Below, piece after piece: positions 21,173 through 41,402 of a DNA stretch of 64,000 bases. Origin of the DNA: Nevskiales bacterium (GTDB lineage: Bacteria; Pseudomonadota; Gammaproteobacteria; Nevskiales; CAJXLF01). Made by a program: the position numbers and the translations under genes. The stretch covers positions 120 through 64,119 of the forward strand of contig JBFJXR010000009.1 of NCBI GenBank assembly GCA_041622995.1, given 5' to 3'. The notes below the pieces were generated by a model, which did no database searches, was not told the origin of the DNA, and saw only the letters and a program-made list of their open reading frames with translations. Within the stretch, counting starts at the first letter, position 1. The number at the start of each line of letters is the position of its first letter.

Positions 21173-22186
21173 ATGTCAGCCGAACCGGTTCTGCACAATC
21201 TGGCGATTAGCCAGGTGATGGTGAACTTTGCCGCCCAGCGTGGGGTGGATGCGGAGACCTGTCTGCTGGGAACAGATATCAGCGAAGCGTTATTACAGGA
21301 CTCAGAGGCACTCATTCCACGAGAGCAGGAAATGCGTCTGGTCGAGAACCTGATGCTCGCCTTGCCGGATGTGCCTGCCCTTGGTTTTGAGTTGGGCATG
21401 CAATACAACATTTCAACTTTCGGCATCTGGGGTTTTGCACTGCGTACCAGTCGCAATCTCCAGGAGGCAGCCGAGCGAGCCTTGCGTTACCTTCCCTTGA
21501 GTACTGCGTACTGCAAATTCACCCTGATTCAGACTGGCGACGAATACGGGGTGAGTGCTGACCCCGGCGATATACCCCCTCATCTACGACAGTTTTTACT
21601 GGAACGGGATATGGCAACCGGTATCAATTTGTTCAGGGAATTAACTCTGGTTGGCCTGACACTTAAACGTCTGGAGTTTGCGGGTCCTGTTCTGCCCTAT
21701 GCTGACCGTATCCATGAACTGGCCGGAGTTGAGCCGGTATTCAATCAGACGCGTAATGCAGTCGTGGTTAATCTTGACGCTGCCACTACACCTTTGCCGA
21801 TGTACGACGAGCACCTTGTTCGCATGATGGAAGATCAGTGCCGGCAGTTACTGCAAAGACGACAAGTCATGGGCATCGCAGGGCAGGTCAGGCAAAAGCT
21901 ACTTGGTTCTTTGGGTCTGGTCGCCACGCTAGAAGAAGTGGCAAAAGAGTTGAATATGGCCCCTCGCAGCTTACGTAGAAAGCTGGAAGAGGAGGGGGCT
22001 AGTTTTCGCAGTCTCGTGGAGGAAACCCGTCAGCATCTGGCCACACAGTTGCTTGAGTCTACGAATATGAAACTGGATGAGTTGGCCCTGCAGCTTGGCT
22101 ATGCTGATACCGCCAGTTTTACGCGAGCCTTTCGCCGTTGGTTCAAGCTGTCACCCGGTGAATATAGAAAGGCAAATCATGAGTAG
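21173..22186 (+). CDS. AraC-family transcriptional regulator
   Basis: C-terminal AraC HTH (LGYADTASFTRAFRRWFKLSPGEYR). Confidence 0.9.
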   Translation: MSAEPVLHNLAISQVMVNFAAQRGVDAETCLLGTDISEALLQDSEALIPREQEMRLVENLMLALPDVPALGFELGMQYNISTFGIWGFALRTSRNLQEAAERALRYLPLSTAYCKFTLIQTGDEYGVSADPGDIPPHLRQFLLERDMATGINLFRELTLVGLTLKRLEFAGPVLPYADRIHELAGVEPVFNQTRNAVVVNLDAATTPLPMYDEHLVRMMEDQCRQLLQRRQVMGIAGQVRQKLLGSLGLVATLEEVAKELNMAPRSLRRKLEEEGASFRSLVEETRQHLATQLLESTNMKLDELALQLGYADTASFTRAFRRWFKLSPGEYRKANHE

Positions 22187-22425: not shown

Positions 22426-23052
22426 CTACTGGCCGGGTAGTGGTTTCGCTATTGCCCGCCAGACCATCTCAAACAGTACGTCAGCCTGTTCGGAGATGGG
22501 GTGTTCCTTCCGTCGGACAATATGCATCTGAATTAGCCGCATCTGAATGCCATAGACGTAATCCAGCAGAATGGTCGGTTCAACTTCGTCAGTGAGGATG
22601 CCCTGTTCGATACCCTCGTTAAGCACGTTGAGAAATGTTTGTGTGAGTTCTTTTTGCTGGAAGCTCTCGTCCTTGCGCCAGGTGCGGCCATAGACCGAGC
22701 CATAAATCATTTCGGCGACCTTGGGATGCTGGTCAAAGAAATCCAGAACTACCCAGAACACTTTCCGTAGTCGATCCTTGAAGGTCTCGATACCTTTAAG
22801 GTGATCCACCATCCGGGTGGCGAGCTTGCTGAGCCAGTAATTCAGGCAGGCACGCTGAATCGCTTCCTTGCTGCCATAGTACTTATAGATGGTCTGCAGA
22901 GAGGCATTGGCCTCTCTGGCGATCTCGTCCAGACCCACGCGATGGAACTCGCGCTTGCAAAACAGCTCCAGTGCGGCAGCTTCGATTCGCTGGCGCACGG
23001 CAGGGGAAAGCTGTTCGAGATCGTGGGTGGGGGTTCTATCCCTTGATTTCAT
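22426..23052 (-). CDS. TetR-family transcriptional regulator
   Basis: N-terminal HTH (VGLDEIAREANASLQTIYKYYGSKEAI). It is divergent from the thiolase/fadB operon. Confidence 0.9.
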   Translation of the reverse strand: MKSRDRTPTHDLEQLSPAVRQRIEAAALELFCKREFHRVGLDEIAREANASLQTIYKYYGSKEAIQRACLNYWLSKLATRMVDHLKGIETFKDRLRKVFWVVLDFFDQHPKVAEMIYGSVYGRTWRKDESFQQKELTQTFLNVLNEGIEQGILTDEVEPTILLDYVYGIQMRLIQMHIVRRKEHPISEQADVLFEMVWRAIAKPLPGQ

Positions 23053-33789: not shown

Positions 33790-34206
33790 ATATTCTTATC
33801 ATTCAGTAAGCTATAACGGTCGCATTTTTAGCCGATTCCAGCACTTTGCGTGAAAAGCACAGCATTCTGCGTGAACGAGGCTCACGGGTAATCGTTGCGT
33901 GGTTCGGTCGTTTCGTGGCAACGCCAGACATCTTATTCAGAAGCCGGTAAAACGGCTCAATGCAAACCTTGAATTATTTCTCCTGACGACAGGTTATTAA
34001 TTATCCCAATCGATCATCATGCCTGGTCCAGTGCTCTCAACAGGATGAAAGCAAGTGATGAAGATCTGAAGGAATGGATTGATCACCTTTATTGCGTTAA
34101 AGTTGGAAAATGAAGAGCAACGCTAAAACATTAGGGGTACATTAGTGTAGGTTGCGAACTGTTGATTGGGCCTACATATAAATCAGAAATTACAAGGTCC
34201 AGGATT

Positions 34207-37182
34207 ATGATGTCTTTCATTTCATCGTTGCAGCCTCGTTGCTGTTTGGTGATTTCTCCGTCCGTATCATCCGCGGGCTTGCCCAAACGTCTTTGCCGGT
34301 GGTTTCTTCTGGGTGGCATGTTGTTGCTGGCACCCCTTTCATGGGCACAAACGATAACGCTCTCAGGCAATGCCGTGGGGGTGAGTGATGACGGTGAATG
34401 CTCCCTCATAGAAGCCATCGATAACGCGAATGCGGACAGTAACGTAAACCAGCCCAACGCACGTTATTTTTACGGAGAAGGCAATCGAAGCCATGACGAC
34501 TGCCCGGCAGGCAATGGGGCCGACACGATCGAGCTGGCCAGCGGTGATTATCAGGTTACCGGTGCTGACAATTTCTGGTATGGGCCTAACGGTCTGCCAG
34601 CGATTACATCAGATATTACGATTCAGGGGCATGCCGATGGCAGCCGGATTTGCCGGTCAGACGGCAACGCCTGTATCAAGGGCAGCAGCCAGGCCGCCCC
34701 CAAGTTCCGATTGTTCTTTGTGGCCTCCGAGCTCACCCCGACTTCTGACGGCACAACGCTTTCGAACCTGAGCCGTGGAACCTTGCGCCTGAATGACCTG
34801 ACCCTGTCCGGGGGTAGGGCTGAGGGCGGTAAAGGAGGACCTGGGTGGGCTAGATATTGGGCTAACGGTGCAGGGGGTGCGGGTCTAGGCGGTGCGATCT
34901 ATAACCAGGGCACACTCGATATTCGTCGCAACTTATTGACGTTCAACCAGGCGCGGGGAGGTAATGCTGGTCTTGATTCTAGAGTTACTTATCATGGCTC
35001 GCATAATAACGAATATGAGATTGTCGCCGGAAATGGGGGCCTTGGAGGTGATGCAGATCAGAACTACTCATTCACACCCGGTGGCGGCGGCGGTTTTGGC
35101 GGGCAGGGAATGGATGGGGGCGGTGGATTCCAGATCGACGCCGATGCAAATGGTGGTGGGGCCGGCTTGCAAAGCGCGCCTACTGCTACGGGAGACGGAG
35201 GTGGACCCGGGGGTGGGGCTGCCGGAGATAATGGTGTAAGGGGTGGTGATGGTCATCCTGCCGGCGGAGGCGGCGGTAGGGGGGATACAGATACAAATGG
35301 TGGGCATGGTGGTTTCGGTGCAGGTGGCGGTGCTGCGGGGGAGTCTTGCAAAGATGTTGCTGTTCGGGGAGGGGATGGCGGTTTTGGTGGTGGGGGTGGC
35401 GGTAGACAGTGGTACGAATGTTATGTACCTAATCTTAATGACTTATTTTTCCTCTCTGGCGGCGGCAATGGCGGGGTAGGCGGCGGAGGTGGTGCTGGTG
35501 GCGCTGGCGGCTATGGGGGCGGTAATGGCGGATTTGGCGGCGGACAGACTGGCGCCCCGGGCAATGGGTACGGCGGCGCGATTTTCAACGAGGCCGGTAC
35601 GATCACCCTGTTAAACACGACGCTATCCGGTAACTCTGCAGCCAATGGCCAGGCCCGGGGTGGCGCGCTGTATAACCTCAATGGTGAAGTCAGCCTTGCC
35701 TACTCCACCTTGGCCAATAATATTGTAGAGGGCAGTACTCCCAGGGGTGGAGCCGTCTATAACCAGTTCCTGGCAAAACCGGGCTCCCCGGCTGCGGACA
35801 GTATCCTGGCTGCCGCGGATATGGGCATGACGATCAAGGCCAGCATTCTGGGCGGCTCCCTGGATGATCAGGGCGGTGTTATCCAGGATTGTCATAACGA
35901 TGCTGGCACGCTGACCAGCCAGGGTTTCAATATTGTTAATGATGTGGGCAGTTGCACCTTTGGCCAGGCTACCGACCAGGTTGCCAAGCCCGGTCTTCTG
36001 GCGCTGGCAGATAATGGTGGGCCCACGCTTTCACATCGGCCTGAATATTTCAGCCCCGCAGTCGGCAATGCCGATGCGAACGATTATCCGGCAACGGATC
36101 AGCGTGGTATAGCACGTGATAGTGCGCCCGACAGTGGTGCCCTCGAGATTCCATCCATAGAGATTCAGGATGCCCAGGTGTCCGAGGGTAACTCAGGTAT
36201 CACTACCCTGGGCATTCCCGTAAGGATTACGCAGGACCCTGACAGTGACGTTTTCCTGGAATGCAGCACGGCTGATGACAGCGCAACAGTTGCCGACAAT
36301 GATTATGCCCCCGTGAATGGCCAGAATTTGACTATCCCCGGAGCCGGTAACATCACGTCAATAATATTTGATGTTTCAGTCATCGGGGATAATGCCAAGG
36401 AGAGTGATGAGCAGTTCCTGGTGAGCTGCGGCAATGTGGCCGGGGCTGGATTACATGATGGGCAGGGCATTGGCACGATCATCAACGATGATGGCCTTTC
36501 CGCCGGCACACCGGATAGCCAGACGACCCTGGACAAGAACGGGAATACGGTGACATTCAGTACCAGCGCCGGCAAGATCATGAACCTGCAGCCAATCGCC
36601 ACACCGGCGGGTGTGCCGCCAAACCGCGACTATCCTAACGGTTTTTTCAGCCTGGATATTACCGGTTTGGCAATCGGCCAGCGCGTGCAACTCACCATTG
36701 ACCTGGCGCCTGGTAGTGCGCCCACGGAAGTCATCAAGTGCACGCCAGCGGGATGTGTTCCCTATCCGGCTTTCTTTAGCGGTGATTCGGTCACGATTAC
36801 GCTCACGGATGGCGATGAAGGTGATGCCGATGGACAGGCTAACGGTGTAATCCACGACCCGGTGGCACCCGCGACCGCTGCAGTTACAACAGGTCCCCCC
36901 GGCCCGGCGGGGCCAAGCGGTGCTGATGGTGCCGCTGGGCCTCAAGGTCCTGCAGGTGCAGATGGTGCCGCCGGGCCTCAAGGTCCTGCAGGCGCAGATG
37001 GTGCTGATGGTGCAGGTGATGCCGCCGGGCCTCAAGGTCCCTCTGGTGCAGATGGCAAGGATGGAGATGACGGTGCAACCTTTGGCTGCAGCCTGGGCCA
37101 GCCCGGTCAGGTGGGCATGGAACTGCCCCTGTTGCTGCTGCTCTCCCTGTGGATGCTGGCCGCCCGGCGACGCGCCAGATAG
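34207..37182 (+). CDS. giant secreted beta-helix protein: choice-of-anchor-Q/PMP-like repeats, Calx-beta, collagen-like tail and C-terminal sorting signal
   Basis: Signal peptide RWFLLGGMLLLAPLSWAQ. The CSLIEAIDNANAD...DCPAGNGADTIELASGDY head is typical of choice-of-anchor Q. GGAIYN/FNQA PMP-like repeats and Gly-rich runs follow. A Calx-beta module runs IQDAQVSEGNSG...DYAP...ESDEQF...INDDG. A DGDEGDADGQANGVIHDPVAP module is choice-of-anchor-U-like. GXY repeats ([21 protein letters not shown]...) precede the tail LPLLLLLSLWMLAARRRAR-stop. The start is uncertain (TTG 34162, or ATG 34207/34210). Confidence 0.8.
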   Translation: MMSFISSLQPRCCLVISPSVSSAGLPKRLCRWFLLGGMLLLAPLSWAQTITLSGNAVGVSDDGECSLIEAIDNANADSNVNQPNARYFYGEGNRSHDDCPAGNGADTIELASGDYQVTGADNFWYGPNGLPAITSDITIQGHADGSRICRSDGNACIKGSSQAAPKFRLFFVASELTPTSDGTTLSNLSRGTLRLNDLTLSGGRAEGGKGGPGWARYWANGAGGAGLGGAIYNQGTLDIRRNLLTFNQARGGNAGLDSRVTYHGSHNNEYEIVAGNGGLGGDADQNYSFTPGGGGGFGGQGMDGGGGFQIDADANGGGAGLQSAPTATGDGGGPGGGAAGDNGVRGGDGHPAGGGGGRGDTDTNGGHGGFGAGGGAAGESCKDVAVRGGDGGFGGGGGGRQWYECYVPNLNDLFFLSGGGNGGVGGGGGAGGAGGYGGGNGGFGGGQTGAPGNGYGGAIFNEAGTITLLNTTLSGNSAANGQARGGALYNLNGEVSLAYSTLANNIVEGSTPRGGAVYNQFLAKPGSPAADSILAAADMGMTIKASILGGSLDDQGGVIQDCHNDAGTLTSQGFNIVNDVGSCTFGQATDQVAKPGLLALADNGGPTLSHRPEYFSPAVGNADANDYPATDQRGIARDSAPDSGALEIPSIEIQDAQVSEGNSGITTLGIPVRITQDPDSDVFLECSTADDSATVADNDYAPVNGQNLTIPGAGNITSIIFDVSVIGDNAKESDEQFLVSCGNVAGAGLHDGQGIGTIINDDGLSAGTPDSQTTLDKNGNTVTFSTSAGKIMNLQPIATPAGVPPNRDYPNGFFSLDITGLAIGQRVQLTIDLAPGSAPTEVIKCTPAGCVPYPAFFSGDSVTITLTDGDEGDADGQANGVIHDPVAPATAAVTTGPPGPAGPSGADGAAGPQGPAGADGAAGPQGPAGADGADGAGDAAGPQGPSGADGKDGDDGATFGCSLGQPGQVGMELPLLLLLSLWMLAARRRAR

Positions 37183-37200: not shown

Positions 37201-37230
37201 AAAAGGCGGCCTGCGGGCCGCCTTTCTTTT
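37201..37230 (+). terminator. rho-independent terminator
   Basis: Stem ggcggcc-tgcg-ggccgcc followed by tttctttt. Confidence 0.8.
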
Positions 37231-37343: not shown

Positions 37344-37387
37344 CTCATAATGCTGGGGTCGGTGGTTCGAGTCCACCCGTACCACCA
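37344..37387 (+). repeat. tRNA-Met 3' fragment, copy 3 (degenerate)
   Basis: CTCATAATGCTGGGGTCGGTGGTTCGAGTCCACCCGTA-CCACCA. Compared with copy 1 it has one substitution and a 1-nt deletion in the acceptor. Confidence 0.75.
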
Positions 37388-37399
37388 TTAATTCAATAA

Positions 37400-38068
37400 T
37401 TAAGTTCCGTCTTTGTCGGTTGTGACGTCGAGATCAGTTGGCTTGTCCTTATTCGCCTGCACGCCGTCGAACATCCGATGAATCATCCAGCTATATCGCT
37501 CGATGATCTTTTCCTTATTGCTATCGCCATCGTCCATTAACTGAAACCCTCCCCAAAATGCCATAACCAGCATCCATGCCATGGGTTTTGCGGCTTCCAA
37601 ATCCAGTTCAAAAGCTTTAGCGATACTGGGTGCCCAGATATTGGTAACTAGATGTCGCATGCTGCGGGCAAAGGGGCTCAGGTCGCTACCCTCGGAATAG
37701 GGTGTGGATAGCACCTTTAGCAAGGCCTTTGATCGTCCCGGAGGCAAGTTGAGAGTAGCCCCAAGTCCCTCAGACAGTACTTCCTGTATCGACGACTGGG
37801 GATAGCTGGCAGAGGCTGCGATGGTTTCCAGATAGGTTTTCTGAAAAAGGTAGGTGGCGGTTTCCACCATCAGGTCTTGCAGCTTGGGGAAGTGTATATG
37901 GATTAGCTGCCGGGTGATGCCACTTCGTTTTGCCAGTCCGCTGATAGACAGCGCCTCCCAGCCTTCGTTATCCACCATCTCCGCAGCTGATTTCACAATC
38001 GCCTTTTTGCGATCTTTCGCAGAAAGGTTGCGACGTTTGGGCGTGGGTTTACTGGTGGCTTTAGACAT
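37400..38068 (-). CDS. TetR-family transcriptional regulator
   Basis: HTH LSISGLAKRSGITRQLIHIHFPKLQDL. It is divergent from the lipoprotein/collagen-like operon. Confidence 0.88.
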   Translation of the reverse strand: MSKATSKPTPKRRNLSAKDRKKAIVKSAAEMVDNEGWEALSISGLAKRSGITRQLIHIHFPKLQDLMVETATYLFQKTYLETIAASASYPQSSIQEVLSEGLGATLNLPPGRSKALLKVLSTPYSEGSDLSPFARSMRHLVTNIWAPSIAKAFELDLEAAKPMAWMLVMAFWGGFQLMDDGDSNKEKIIERYSWMIHRMFDGVQANKDKPTDLDVTTDKDGT

Positions 38069-38116
38069 GTGCAGGTAAGGATTTTACTCAAGAATATTAA
38101 AGTTCCCAAGTATGCA

Positions 38117-38133
38117 TTTTACACCATGTAAAA
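38117..38133. promoter_or_regulatory. inverted repeat TTTTACA-N3-TGTAAAA, candidate TetR operator
   Basis: Perfect 7-3-7 palindrome in the divergent intergenic region. Confidence 0.5.
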
Positions 38134-38178
38134 AAGTTGCGTTGTGGGTTGTGCTGTTGTAGGCTGAAATGAGGCTTA

Positions 38179-38193
38179 TTTACAAATAGTAAA
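38179..38193. promoter_or_regulatory. second related inverted repeat TTTAC-N5-GTAAA
   Basis: It has the same half-site as 38117..38133 and lies 55 nt upstream of the lipoprotein start. Confidence 0.4.
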
Positions 38194-38247
38194 AAATTGT
38201 ATTGGCGGGCTTGGAAGCAACTGTCGATACGGGTGAGGAAGGTGTTG

Positions 38248-38595
38248 ATGAAAAAATCAACGAAGAAAATCCGCTTATGGCTGCTGTGTTTTGCTTTTTT
38301 ATTTCTGACAGCCTGTTTTGATCTGGGCAGTGTTACAGGCAAAAGCGGCAAGTCATCAGGTGGCTCGGGAACTGCTAGTTCAGGCGCGCCTACTACTCAA
38401 CCGCCCAATGATCCGGCTCCCGCTGACCCAGCACCAACATATCCTGGCGACCCACCTGTCGTAACCGTTAATGATTCTGAAACGCTTTCCTCGCCGCAGA
38501 TTCAGGTCCAGATGCTTCCGGGGTTCGTCACCATAAGTTCCACACCCATGCGCTCTGAGAATTACCAGGTCGTATTCGCTCTGAAGGGAGAATAG
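38248..38595 (+). CDS. small lipoprotein, Pro-rich, unknown function (first gene of the collagen-like operon)
   Basis: MKKSTKKIRLWLLCFAFLFLTAC contains a lipobox. The stop lies 3 nt before the next start. Confidence 0.75.
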   Translation: MKKSTKKIRLWLLCFAFLFLTACFDLGSVTGKSGKSSGGSGTASSGAPTTQPPNDPAPADPAPTYPGDPPVVTVNDSETLSSPQIQVQMLPGFVTISSTPMRSENYQVVFALKGE

Positions 38596-38598
38596 GTC

Positions 38599-39411
38599 AT
38601 GTCCTTATCAATGAACGTATGTGTAAGAAGTTTACTATTCGGACTGTTCTTTCTTTCAATTGCTGCTCATGCAGATGTGCCCACACTGTTTCAGAAAACA
38701 GGTCGTGCAGTGGACGCAAATACGGGCCAGCCACTGCAAGGCGCACATGATGTCACTATCAGGTTATATGAAGGCGATGGCGCGCCGGTAACGGCGGCAT
38801 TCTTTACCCACACGGAAACCCTAGAATTTGTGAACGGTGTTTTCACGGTAACAGGTCATGTGGACGATGTCCTTCGACAGACTTTGCGCGATGGTGCGGA
38901 TGTGTATCTGGGGCTGCAGATCGATGCTCATCAGGAGCTAACGCCTCGATTACCCGTCACCGCAGCGTTTTATGCACAGCTTGCTCGTGATGTGTCAGGG
39001 GATATTCATCCGAAATCCGTTATCGTGAATGGTCTGCCGGTTATTGATATTAATGGTCAGTGGGTGGGTGACCCTGCTGGCTTGATTGGACCGCAGGGTG
39101 AGCCGGGTCCTATCGGACCGAAGGGTGATCAGGGTGACCCGGGCGGACCACCAGGCCCGGCGGGGCCAGAGGGTCCGCAAGGAGAAGTCGGGCCACCGGG
39201 CCCCGAAGGGCCGCAAGGACCTGAGGGAATACAAGGCGTGCAGGGGCCACAGGGTGATGCAGGACCCCAGGGGCCGCAGGGTGACCCAGGGCCGCAAGGT
39301 CCGCAGGGTGAAGCGGGCTTAAATGGGGGCAATTGCACCATTTCCCAGTGCTCACAGAGAGCGGCCATATTGGAGTGCGAGAACTTTCCCGCAGTGGCAG
39401 TGAGATGCTGA
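38599..39411 (+). CDS. secreted collagen-like triple-helix repeat protein 1
   Basis: Signal peptide ...[10 protein letters not shown]. An N-terminal ~140-aa globular domain is followed by about 27 G-X-Y triplets with a one-residue interruption, and a C-terminal Cys motif NCTISQCS...C...C. Confidence 0.85.
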
Positions 39412-40637
39412 TAAGTAACCTTTACAGGGTCACGCTGAGTCGTCTGCGGGAATGGTTCGTGTTTGAACCGGCCTTTACTGCCGTAAGGCGCTTACTGCTG
39501 GTTTCGCTGTTGTTTGCGGGCACCGCCCATGCCGGTGTGCCTGCCCTGTTCCAGAACACCGGGCGGGCAATTGACACAAATACAGGCGAGCCTCTTCAGG
39601 GGGCACAGTTGGTCACCCTGCGATTATATGACGTTGCAGCTGCGCCACTGGCGGATGCCGTTTTTACTCATGTCGAGACGATTGTATTTACGGATGGCGT
39701 GTTTACCGTGACGGCAGCCATTGACGACATGCTGAGAGAAAACCTGCGATCGGGCGGGCAGATTTACCTCGGCTTGCAGATCAATCACGACGAAGAAATG
39801 CAGCCACGGCAAGCAGTGGGCACCCAGTTTTTTACCCAGCTGGCGCATGATGTGTCGGGGGATATCCACCCGAAATCAGTGGTCGTGAATGACGCGCCAG
39901 TCATTAATGAGACGGGCAAATGGGTGGGGGATATCGCAGCATTCACCGGCCCACAAGGTGATCCAGGGCCTACCGGACCCAAGGGTGATCAAGGTGAGGC
40001 GCAAGGGCCAGAAGGCCCACCGGGACCGCAGGGCGTGCCTGGCGATATGGGCCCGCAAGGGCCGGTGGGTCAGCGTGGTGTTCAGGGGCCGCCGGGTGCA
40101 AAAGGGATTCCGGGTGTGCAGACAGGGCCAAAAGGCATCCAGGGGCCAGAGGGCCTGCAAGGTTTAACGGGCGCCTCTGGGGCTACTTGCAGTATCTCGC
40201 AGTGCTCATTTCCGGGCACCGTTACCCTTTCATGCGGTGGGCAGGATTATGTTGACCTGGTGTCGTTCCCGGAGTTGGATGTGAGCGCCATCGAGGCGCC
40301 ACCGCCTTTTGTGGCGGGGAGTTTTCCTTTGGTGATAGATGCACGCCCCCTTGTAAGAAAACACTGTGGTGAGGTGGTGCCGGATCATTCGGATCTCTTG
40401 TTTGAATGGGTCTGCCAGGGGCAGTCTGCCGAGTTTGCGACCGTATGCACCAAGGACTCTGATGGCTGGGATGCGCTGGCCTATGATGAGAACTTCGACT
40501 ACCAGAGAATCGAGTGGGTTCCTCAGAGCAACGTAAGATATGCAATATCACTCACGATTTACGATACCACCGACGCCGCCTTCGGATATGAAACTTCCAT
40601 CCAAATCATCTGGGAATTTGAAACTACGGCGACGTGA
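39405..40637 (+). CDS. secreted collagen-like triple-helix repeat protein 2 (paralogue, with an extra ~150-aa C-terminal domain)
   Basis: ATG 39405 overlaps the upstream stop (ATGCTGA). The N-terminal domain is homologous to protein 1 ([23 protein letters not shown]...IYLGLQI...[11 protein letters not shown]). About 26 GXY triplets are followed by TCSISQCS and then a Cys-containing globular tail. Confidence 0.85.
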
Positions 40638-40741: not shown

Positions 40742-41197
40742 TCACTCAAACCAGCCTCGGGGGTCATACCAGGGGTGTTCGACCTTCTTGAGATTCTTGT
40801 CATCATGGCGTTCTTCAGCGCGTGCTTGGCCCCGGGTTGAATCAGGATCTGACTGGCGGTTACTGTTTGGGTTACTGTCGTCGACCTTATCTGGGTTTTT
40901 GACGCTCCAACTCCATGGCTTATACCAGCTTGATTCCTCGTTAAAATTCTTCTTGTCTGCGTGGTGCTTGTTCTTTTTTCCATTATTACCGTTGTCTCCC
41001 TGACTGCTCTGAACGAACCTGTTTGAACTGTCATATTTGCCCCGACCTTCAGTAAAGTCATAACCCGCTTTTATCAGGTAATCCGGGTGGCCGTTATTCT
41101 CCTGAGGGAGTTCACTTTCGCTTTCGGCAACAACGCTAAGGGAAAAGGCCATGAGTATGGTGGCCATGGTTGTAAGGATATATTTTTTGGAATTCAT
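40742..41197 (-). CDS. secreted low-complexity K/N/D-rich protein, unknown function
   Basis: MNSKKYILTTMATILMAFSLSVVA signal peptide. GGAGA SD lies upstream. Trp motifs WYKPWSW and PWYDPRGW are present. Confidence 0.65.
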   Translation of the reverse strand: MNSKKYILTTMATILMAFSLSVVAESESELPQENNGHPDYLIKAGYDFTEGRGKYDSSNRFVQSSQGDNGNNGKKNKHHADKKNFNEESSWYKPWSWSVKNPDKVDDSNPNSNRQSDPDSTRGQARAEERHDDKNLKKVEHPWYDPRGWFE

Positions 41198-41402
41198 TTT
41201 GGTACATTCTCCTTCGTCTTTAATTGGGTGCAGCATGACCCCTCACGGCATCGGTGTCTGTGCGGTTTCGCTCATACCTGAATAAAGCTGCTTGGGCTTC
41301 ACAGAGTTTGAACCAGTAAGTGTTGATGCTTTTGAGGTTATCGACTGTGGCATTACTTGTTGCCGCAGCAACCTGCCGTGTTCTTTGGGCAATCGCACCA
41401 AG

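Follow-up and report, generated by a model that had tools for sequence, protein, structure and literature searches.

A putative lipoprotein-docked, collagen-stalked fiber module of the mosaic adhesive trimer superfamily in a marine Nevskiales bacterium

We analyzed a stretch of 64,000 nucleotides (nt) from a Nevskiales bacterium (GenBank assembly GCA_041622995.1, contig JBFJXR010000009.1, positions 120 to 64,119 of the forward strand), hereafter called the window, in which three genes that we refer to as P1, P2, and P3 encode a small lipoprotein and two collagen-like proteins. We postulate, with a probability of about 0.6, that these genes form one operon for a cell envelope fiber module that is docked to a lipoprotein, carries its two different tips on collagen stalks, and belongs to the superfamily of the mosaic adhesive trimer (MAT) fibers of Bdellovibrio. 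The three genes lie head to tail on the plus strand, and a TetR-family gene points away from them on the other side. Three nucleotides separate the TAG codon of P1 from the ATG of P2 (38599), and the stop codon of P2 and the ATG of P3 (39405) share the sequence ATGCTGA, a 7-nt overlap. From this gap and this overlap, we infer co-transcription and translational coupling of P1, P2, and P3. The layout, including the divergent TetR gene, is exactly as described in a first-pass annotation of the same DNA.

P2 and P3 are paralogs (56% identity over 236 amino acids [aa]; E value, 2e-81). Each begins with a signal peptide, judged by eye, with the cleavage motifs AHA/D and AHA/G (the slash marks the cut), followed by an N-terminal domain (N-domain) that is 60% identical between the two proteins across 135 aa. 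The G-X-Y repeats that come next score above the Pfam gathering threshold for collagen (PF01391; P2, 46.7 bits; P3, 47.8 bits; threshold, 27.2 bits). Counted from GPQ, six triplets precede a one-residue interruption in both repeat regions; in P3, the collagen is interrupted a second time. The last triplet is followed directly by CTISQCS in P2 and by CSISQCS in P3, behind which the longer protein has an extra tail with four cysteines. An alternative GTG start codon for P3 at 39459 would provide a more typical 25-aa signal peptide and leave the mature protein unchanged. The first-pass annotation had portrayed P2 and P3 as secreted proteins that share a base domain and a collagen stalk and differ at their C-terminal ends, and it had pointed out the signal peptides, the homologous N-terminal domain, the shared break in the repeats, the C-[TS]-I-S-Q-C-S motif, and the Cys-containing tail of the longer protein. 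We found all of these features; only its count of 26 to 27 triplets needed adjustment, to 27 to 28 in P2 and 26 in P3.

The N-domain belongs to a very large family. We used a two-sequence profile (P2 plus P3) in an exhaustive HMMER search of representative clusters at 50% identity and found 2,108 clusters with E values of ≤1e-3 and 510 with E values of ≤1e-10; P2 and P3 match the family with E values of 1e-20 to 1e-46. This family is visible only by exhaustive profile search, and a word-indexed homolog search with the N-domain of P2 returned nothing, P2 itself included. In proteins ranging from 158 to about 1,800 aa, the domain almost always occupies approximately residues 25 to 160, directly behind the signal peptide. 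Collagen follows it with no intervening domain in 125 of the 150 best matches, through a strongly conserved junction (GDI.P.SV.V.G..VID..G.WVG...GL.GP.GP), and stalks across the family measure anywhere between about 4 and 117 triplets. At the C terminus, the members carry a mosaic of heads, among them DUF1554, BNR-like repeats, Phage Tail Collar, Xlink, F5/8 type C, C-type-lectin-like, and C1q-like domains, and some members have no collagen at all. Relatives are annotated in public databases only as “collagen-like protein” or “hypothetical protein.” An N-terminal pattern that the first-pass annotation had pointed to proved to be a recurrent module of this family, Y.G.L...LY...YLG..V...PR.

The domain is linked to a named family through its relatives. 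Forty aligned members of the N-domain family were compared with the NCBIfam model NF053851 (Bdello_MAT_N), and 25 of them matched it at E values of ≤0.01 (best E value, 9.5e-11); two canonical relatives scored 22.6 and 29.6 bits in full-length scans. The model represents the N-terminal domain of the MAT fibers, 21 of which have been described in Bdellovibrio (Caulton 2024, PMC10769870). In these fibers, a β-rich domain of about 130 aa lies right behind the signal peptide and is followed by a trimeric stalk and swapped adhesive tips. This N-terminal domain lacks a homolog in the PDB and is presumed to bind a surface element that the study leaves unidentified, as the proposed proximal base of the fiber (PMC10769870). 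The fibers were shown experimentally to be surface exposed and are proposed to be the prey recognition organelles of Bdellovibrio, and the relatives listed in Table S3 of that study come from the Myxococcales, the Bradymonadaceae, the Saprospiraceae (“collagen-like”), and other groups (PMC10769870). Because their N-domain family matches NF053851, P2 and P3 are not an undescribed kind of fiber. The first-pass annotation had taken the genes for an undescribed system of no named family, a view that gives way to a remote relationship between the N-domain family and the MAT N-terminal domain (NF053851; PMC10769870, Table S3). Judged by these profile matches, we place P2 and P3 within the MAT superfamily but outside the Bdellovibrio subfamily model, as short and divergent members with collagen stalks.

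The likeness to the MAT fibers extends to overall architecture. In both cases, a signal peptide precedes a β-rich N-domain of about 130 aa that has no PDB homolog, a stalk and interchangeable C-terminal tips follow, and several paralogs are built on a common base; P2 and P3 share base and stalk and differ at the C terminus. However, the stalk of P2 and P3 is predicted to be a collagen triple helix, whereas that of the MATs is a β-helix or a meandering trimer. P2 and P3 are also much shorter (270 and 410 aa, versus about 600 to 1,900 aa), they contain no S74 domain, and there is no evidence of a predatory lifestyle in the host of the window. A conserved upstream lipoprotein partner is a further difference on the collagen-stalked side, and neither the main text nor the text-form supplements of the MAT paper contain the word “lipoprotein” (PMC10769870). 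A Zixibacteria locus (L089; CP070839.1, 339 to 4756) has three tandem N-domain genes, one of which encodes a protein with a β-helix-like GG..N.A.G..STV.GG repeat stalk and a faint Peptidase_S74 match, that is, a MAT of the Bdellovibrio type.

Structure prediction is consistent with a β-rich base. An AlphaFold2 (AF2) model of the N-domain of P2, built on a 40-sequence alignment (predicted local distance difference test [pLDDT] score, 84), has a β-sandwich followed by a small hairpin. Foldseek searches of the PDB and BFVD with this model returned generic β-sandwiches only (E values of ≥1e-3; template modeling [TM] scores of about 0.4), and we did not interpret its matches to TssJ, the AspS pilotin, and phage LtfC. 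Nothing in the PDB was matched at the sequence level by the N-domain or its profile, by the lipoprotein motif profile described below, or by the P3 tail. Beyond the collagen repeats, matches in Pfam, NCBIfam, or PHROG were lacking: none was obtained for P1, the N-domain, or the P3 tail, and the P3 tip had no local homolog. The single-sequence AF2 model of this tip had a pLDDT of 44 and was unusable.

The second main element of the module is the lipoprotein. P0002, P0003, and P0004 are the proteins most closely related to P2 and P3, and for each of them a small lipoprotein gene lies directly 5′ of the fiber gene, overlapping or abutting it. We screened 80 metagenomic loci and additional loci for lipoboxes and defined the partner family by a profile (A4) of its C-terminal motif; the locus scans used a tighter N-domain alignment (A3), the broad alignment (A2) being too diverse. 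The partner proteins have a signal peptide with a cysteine, a low-complexity tether of about 40 to 150 aa rich in Thr, Pro, Ser, and Gly, and a C-terminal twin motif with the consensus S..[YF].MVFTLGQPTQNQG...S..[YF]RLQGGL.GANG. An open reading frame (ORF) with this motif is located immediately 5′ of the fiber gene, on the same strand, at 60 of 84 evaluable loci. It ends 74 to 110 nt from the start of the N-domain at 59 of these 60 loci and 244 nt from it at the remaining one, and thus just before the signal peptide of the fiber. When all ORFs of all loci were considered, 60 of 62 significant motif matches fell in this upstream position.

The pairing is found in varied settings. On the complete chromosome of Sorangium sp. 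So ce260, the lipoprotein and fiber genes stand alone as a two-gene module, flanked by housekeeping genes unrelated to them, and Nannocystis sp. SCPEA4 has two complete pairs inside 5 kb. It also occurs with an N-domain protein that has a Collar head and no collagen, where the lipoprotein ORF had not been called (motif E value, 6e-14). The lipoproteins have no Pfam, NCBIfam, or PDB match and are always annotated as hypothetical, and we found no paper that describes them. The conserved partner thus appears to be undescribed and to be the new part of the finding. The first-pass annotation had tied the lipoprotein functionally to the fibers, which the retention of the gene pair at 60 of 84 related loci supports; of the neighborhood that it listed, the lipoprotein-fiber pair is conserved, and neither the tandem fiber duplication nor the TetR gene is. 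The duplication, one lipoprotein with two fibers, was observed at no locus besides that of the window and its Logan copy. Together with the TetR adjacency, the C-x4-C motif, and the orphan tip of P3, it is a lineage- or subclade-specific trait.

One clade has a possible further component. At 11 metagenomic loci belonging to one clade, a membrane-anchored protein of about 200 aa and of no known family is encoded directly 3′ of the fiber gene (for example, L088, 8138 to 8752, and L008, 6118 to 6856); a similar-looking protein, judged by eye only, occupies this position in Nannocystis, and the window has none. It may be a clade-specific third component. Clustering of all neighboring ORFs revealed no broadly conserved third gene.

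P1 has the lipobox, the low-complexity tether, and the position (same strand, directly 5′ of an N-domain fiber gene) of the partner family. Its C terminus contains the pair SSPQIQVQM and SENYQVVFA at a 21-residue spacing. When a profile of four lipoproteins of the P1 subclade was aligned with A4 by hhalign, both half-motifs were in register at the same 21-residue spacing (E value, 4e-4). The form of the motif tested on P1 was S..[YF][RK][ML]VFTLGQ...S..[YF]R[LM]QGGL.GA. We consider P1 a probable divergent member of the partner family, for which position and architecture are strong evidence and sequence is moderate evidence.

Several results weigh against our interpretation. P2 and P3 themselves had no match to NF053851 at E values of ≤0.1, and no match with a known score came near the curated cutoff of the model (60 bits); the link to the MATs is therefore transitive and holds at the superfamily level only. 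P1 is weakly matched by the motif profile (hidden Markov model E values, 5.6 and 0.31), and the hhalign probability for its subclade was low, at 35%. Because this direct sequence link is weak, the membership of P1 rests largely on position and architecture. The twin-motif lipoprotein is absent from about a quarter of related loci, and none was found at the Zixibacteria locus with the S74-type fiber (L089); it is thus not a universal requirement. Finally, the TetR adjacency is unique to the window locus, and the candidate operators there are statistically weak.

We propose the following arrangement for the window. P2 and P3 would be exported through their Sec signal peptides, and each would trimerize by way of a collagen triple helix, about 24 nm long in P2 and about 22 nm long in P3. 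The β-sandwich N-domain, about 135 aa, would form the cell-proximal base, as has been proposed for the MATs. At the distal end of the helix, the C-x4-C motif probably would lock the three chains by interchain disulfides. Beyond it, P2 would end in its 25-aa Cys cap and perhaps is a minimal or capping variant, and P3 would present its 142-aa orphan globular tip, which presumably binds a target. The lipoprotein P1, with its flexible low-complexity tether, probably would lie in the outer membrane; that membrane is favored because Phe, and not Asp, follows the lipidated cysteine, if proteobacterial sorting rules apply. Its terminal twin β-motif would dock or assemble the N-domain bases, with one lipoprotein serving both fibers.

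The proposed disulfide lock has a counterpart in animals. Among animal collagens, the COL1/NC1 junction of the FACIT class (fibril-associated collagens whose triple helices are interrupted) has two cysteines four residues apart, and type III collagen has a C-terminal cystine knot. The C-x4-C of P2 and P3 likewise stands directly after the last G-X-Y triplet, where it would be placed for interchain disulfides, a resemblance that is probably convergent. Among the 183 collagen-bearing relatives examined, no protein besides P2, P3, and P0002, the relative closest to them, had C-x4-C after the helix. A cysteine staple of the trimer is plausible, but the motif is confined to this small subclade.

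Taken beyond the window, the twin-motif lipoprotein might be the cell-side receptor of MAT-type N-domains in a widespread two-component system of fiber display, an extension that we offer tentatively and hold to be less probable than not. An alternative hypothesis is that the lipoprotein is not an anchor but a helper in assembly or export (acting as a pilot, as a chaperone in the periplasm, or in setting the register of the trimer), with the fibers held in some other way or released. A conserved and translationally coupled synteny is equally expected of a chaperone, and the ratio of lipoprotein to fiber varies, with one per two fibers in the window and one per fiber in Nannocystis. In addition, lipoprotein-free N-domain loci exist, so that anchoring must work without the lipoprotein there. 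However, a lipid anchor joined by a long disordered tether to a short terminal motif resembles a tether more than it does a folded chaperone, and the partner lipoproteins have no chaperone-like domain. We consider a helper role unlikely.

Less probable still is that the collagen rods are intra-envelope elements, acting as lipoprotein-tethered periplasmic spacers or struts and not as surface adhesins. P2 and P3 have Sec signal peptides only, and no outer membrane translocator is encoded near P1 to P3; rods of 22 to 24 nm would be of periplasm-like length, and genes for OmpA and for glycine-zipper envelope proteins are close to the fiber operon. The spread of stalk lengths in the family speaks against a fixed spacer, binding domains of lectin, C1q, Collar, and F5/8 type C types make up the heads, and the homologous MATs of Bdellovibrio are exposed at the surface (PMC10769870). 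As members of a lipoprotein-docked fiber module, P2 and P3 would likewise be surface exposed, with an adhesive tip.

We rejected, as very improbable, derivation from a phage or tailocin tail fiber cassette left by a mobile element: PHROG tail fiber families match P2 and P3 with E values down to 3e-23, a truncated tRNA 3′ half lies 13 nt past the stop codon of the TetR gene, the relative P0003 adjoins a tyrosine integrase, and Foldseek gave weak matches to phage β-sandwich tail domains, but every PHROG match is limited to the collagen repeats (residues ~142 to 265), the viral fold matches have E values of ≥1.8e-3 and TM scores of about 0.4, no phage structural genes or other phage or mobile element genes were found anywhere in the 64-kb window, the patterns used for searching 2.9 million viral contigs found no relative of the N-domain, and P2 and P3 carry Sec signal peptides and are paired with a lipoprotein. 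The first-pass annotation had itself raised a phage tail fiber module with adjacent phage genes; the neighbors are metabolic genes of the chromosome.

Comparison with other collagen-like proteins sets the fibers of the window apart. As in Scl1/Scl2 of Streptococcus, Lcl of Legionella, and BclA of Bacillus, a G-X-Y stalk, by analogy, would present a globular domain at the surface, and the collagen is rich in Pro and Gln with no hydroxyproline. The polarity is reversed, however: in P2 and P3, it is the proximal, N-terminal domain that is conserved, with the variable tip placed at the C terminus. The NCBIfam models for Scl and Lcl match P2 and P3 in the repeat region only (35 to 52 bits, versus cutoffs of 325 to 500 bits), and unlike Scl and Lcl, P2 and P3 have no LPXTG anchor, Scl V-domain, or Lcl C-terminal domain. 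The collagen-like tail fibers of phages (PHROG 819, 8745, 5073, and 366) share with them collagen repeats, a trimeric fiber (predicted for P2 and P3), and a variable distal end, but the similarity is confined to the repeats, a phage context is missing, and the N-domain is absent from the viral contigs searched.

TABLE 1 Coordinates of the fiber locus and its parts in the window
Feature	Position in window (residues)	Strand	Remarks
TetR-family regulator, 222 aa	37400-38068	-	PF00440 TetR_N
Shared intergenic spacer, 179 nt	38069-38247	.	AT-rich, 40% GC; two related palindromes
P1, small lipoprotein, 115 aa	38248-38595	+	Lipobox, low-complexity linker, C-terminal segment
P1 signal peptide and lipobox	38248-38316	+	LFLTAC, Cys23
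P1 low-complexity linker	(aa 24-79)	+	Gly/Ser/Pro-rich
P1 C-terminal segment	38485-38592 (aa 80-115)	+	LSSPQIQVQM...SENYQVVFALKGE
P2, short fiber, 270 aa	38599-39411	+	Signal peptide, N-domain, collagen stalk, Cys-rich cap
P2 signal peptide	38599-38673 (aa 1-25)	+	
P2 MAT-like N-domain	38674-39078 (aa 26-160)	+	
P2 collagen stalk	39079-39333 (aa 161-245)	+	27-28 triplets, ~24 nm (predicted)
P2 Cys-rich cap, 25 aa	39334-39408	+	
P3, long fiber, 410 aa (from ATG 39405)	39405-40637	+	Signal peptide, N-domain, collagen, CSISQCS, orphan tip
P3 signal peptide	39405-39533 (to aa 43)	+	
P3 N-domain	39534-39947 (aa 44-181)	+	
P3 collagen	39948-40187 (aa 182-261)	+	26 triplets, ~22 nm (predicted)
P3 CSISQCS	40188-40208	+	
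P3 orphan tip, 142 aa	40209-40634	+	4 Cys

The operon had also been described as TetR controlled, which the wider comparison does not bear out: a TetR-like ORF was found at 0 of 86 related loci, and we rejected the TetR link as a conserved feature on this ground. The product of the divergent gene matches TetR_N (PF00440) with 28.6 bits, versus a cutoff of 24, and otherwise has weak ScbR/BetI-like matches only. The two related inverted repeats reported earlier between this gene and P1 are present, as palindrome 1 (TTTTACAccaTGTAAAA, 38117 to 38133) and palindrome 2 (TTTACaaataGTAAA, 38179 to 38193), and a sigma-70-like site for the TetR gene (38109 to 38081, minus strand) abuts palindrome 1. 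Palindromes of equal quality (arms of ≥7 bp) appeared in 8% of shuffled spacers, so the pair is not beyond chance on its own, and its identification as candidate TetR operators is suggestive at most. Regulation of the operon by TetR is possible. Elsewhere in the window, a second TetR-family regulator (22426 to 23052, minus strand) stands beside an AraC-family regulator (21173 to 22186, plus strand), upstream of a fadA/fadB/acyl-CoA dehydrogenase/MMPL cluster. Genes of the TetR family are thus common in this region of the genome, which weakens any inference from adjacency.

The rest of the window is ordinary chromosome, with genes for β-oxidation enzymes, acyl-CoA ligases, an MMPL transporter, OmpA, regulators, and oxidoreductases. 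Its DNA was present in three marine metagenomes of one study only, at a depth of 4 to 9× and essentially free of variation. Immediately upstream of the fiber operon region, a gene at 34162 to 37182 (plus strand) encodes a secreted protein of giant size (about 1,000 aa) with Gly-rich repeats, choice-of-anchor Q and U domains, Calx-beta, a collagen-like tail of its own (about 20 triplets), and a JDVT-CTERM sorting signal (28.6 bits, versus a cutoff of 27). It is a second collagen-bearing, sorted surface protein beside the fiber operon, and its gene is followed by a strong terminator hairpin (37202 to 37225). Downstream of P3, a convergent gene (40742 to 41236, minus strand) encodes a 164-aa secreted protein that has many charged residues and no Pfam or NCBIfam family.

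The tRNA 3′ half mentioned above (37344 to 37387, plus strand) retains a CTCATAA anticodon-loop remnant, the T-arm, the acceptor strand, and CCA, and it was not called by ARAGORN. Contigs of foreign origin from metagenomes align here through their tRNAs, their loose ends being tRNA 5′ halves, and no full-length tRNA matching the remnant was found within the window. The remnant could be the att-site scar of an integration event. At another locus (L005, 448 to 1629), P0003, which ranks second among the relatives closest to the fibers of the window, and its lipoprotein are encoded directly 3′ of the tyrosine integrase (Arm-DNA-bind_3/Phage_integrase), which hints that the fiber module is able to travel on islands.

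The genes of the window do not amount to a new kind of system, being an example that is both divergent and duplicated; what they bring into view is a very large N-domain family, in which collagen is the commonest stalk among the closest relatives studied here and most sampled members are coupled to a lipoprotein. As the anchor or assembly factor of MAT-type N-domains, the twin-motif lipoprotein is a concrete candidate. For annotators, the pairing would put a name to thousands of neighboring “collagen-like protein” and “hypothetical protein” entries, and the combination of an N-terminal trimer base, collagen, and a Cys lock may be of interest for the design of recombinant bacterial collagens. 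If the receptor hypothesis is true, a flexible, lipid-anchored tether would dock trimeric stalks, of collagen or of other kinds, that bear swappable adhesive tips, and this system would operate in the Myxococcota (Sorangium and Nannocystis), in the marine bacterium of the window, and in other lineages. It would then also answer the question left by Caulton 2024 (PMC10769870) of which surface element the N-terminal domain of the Bdellovibrio MAT fibers binds.

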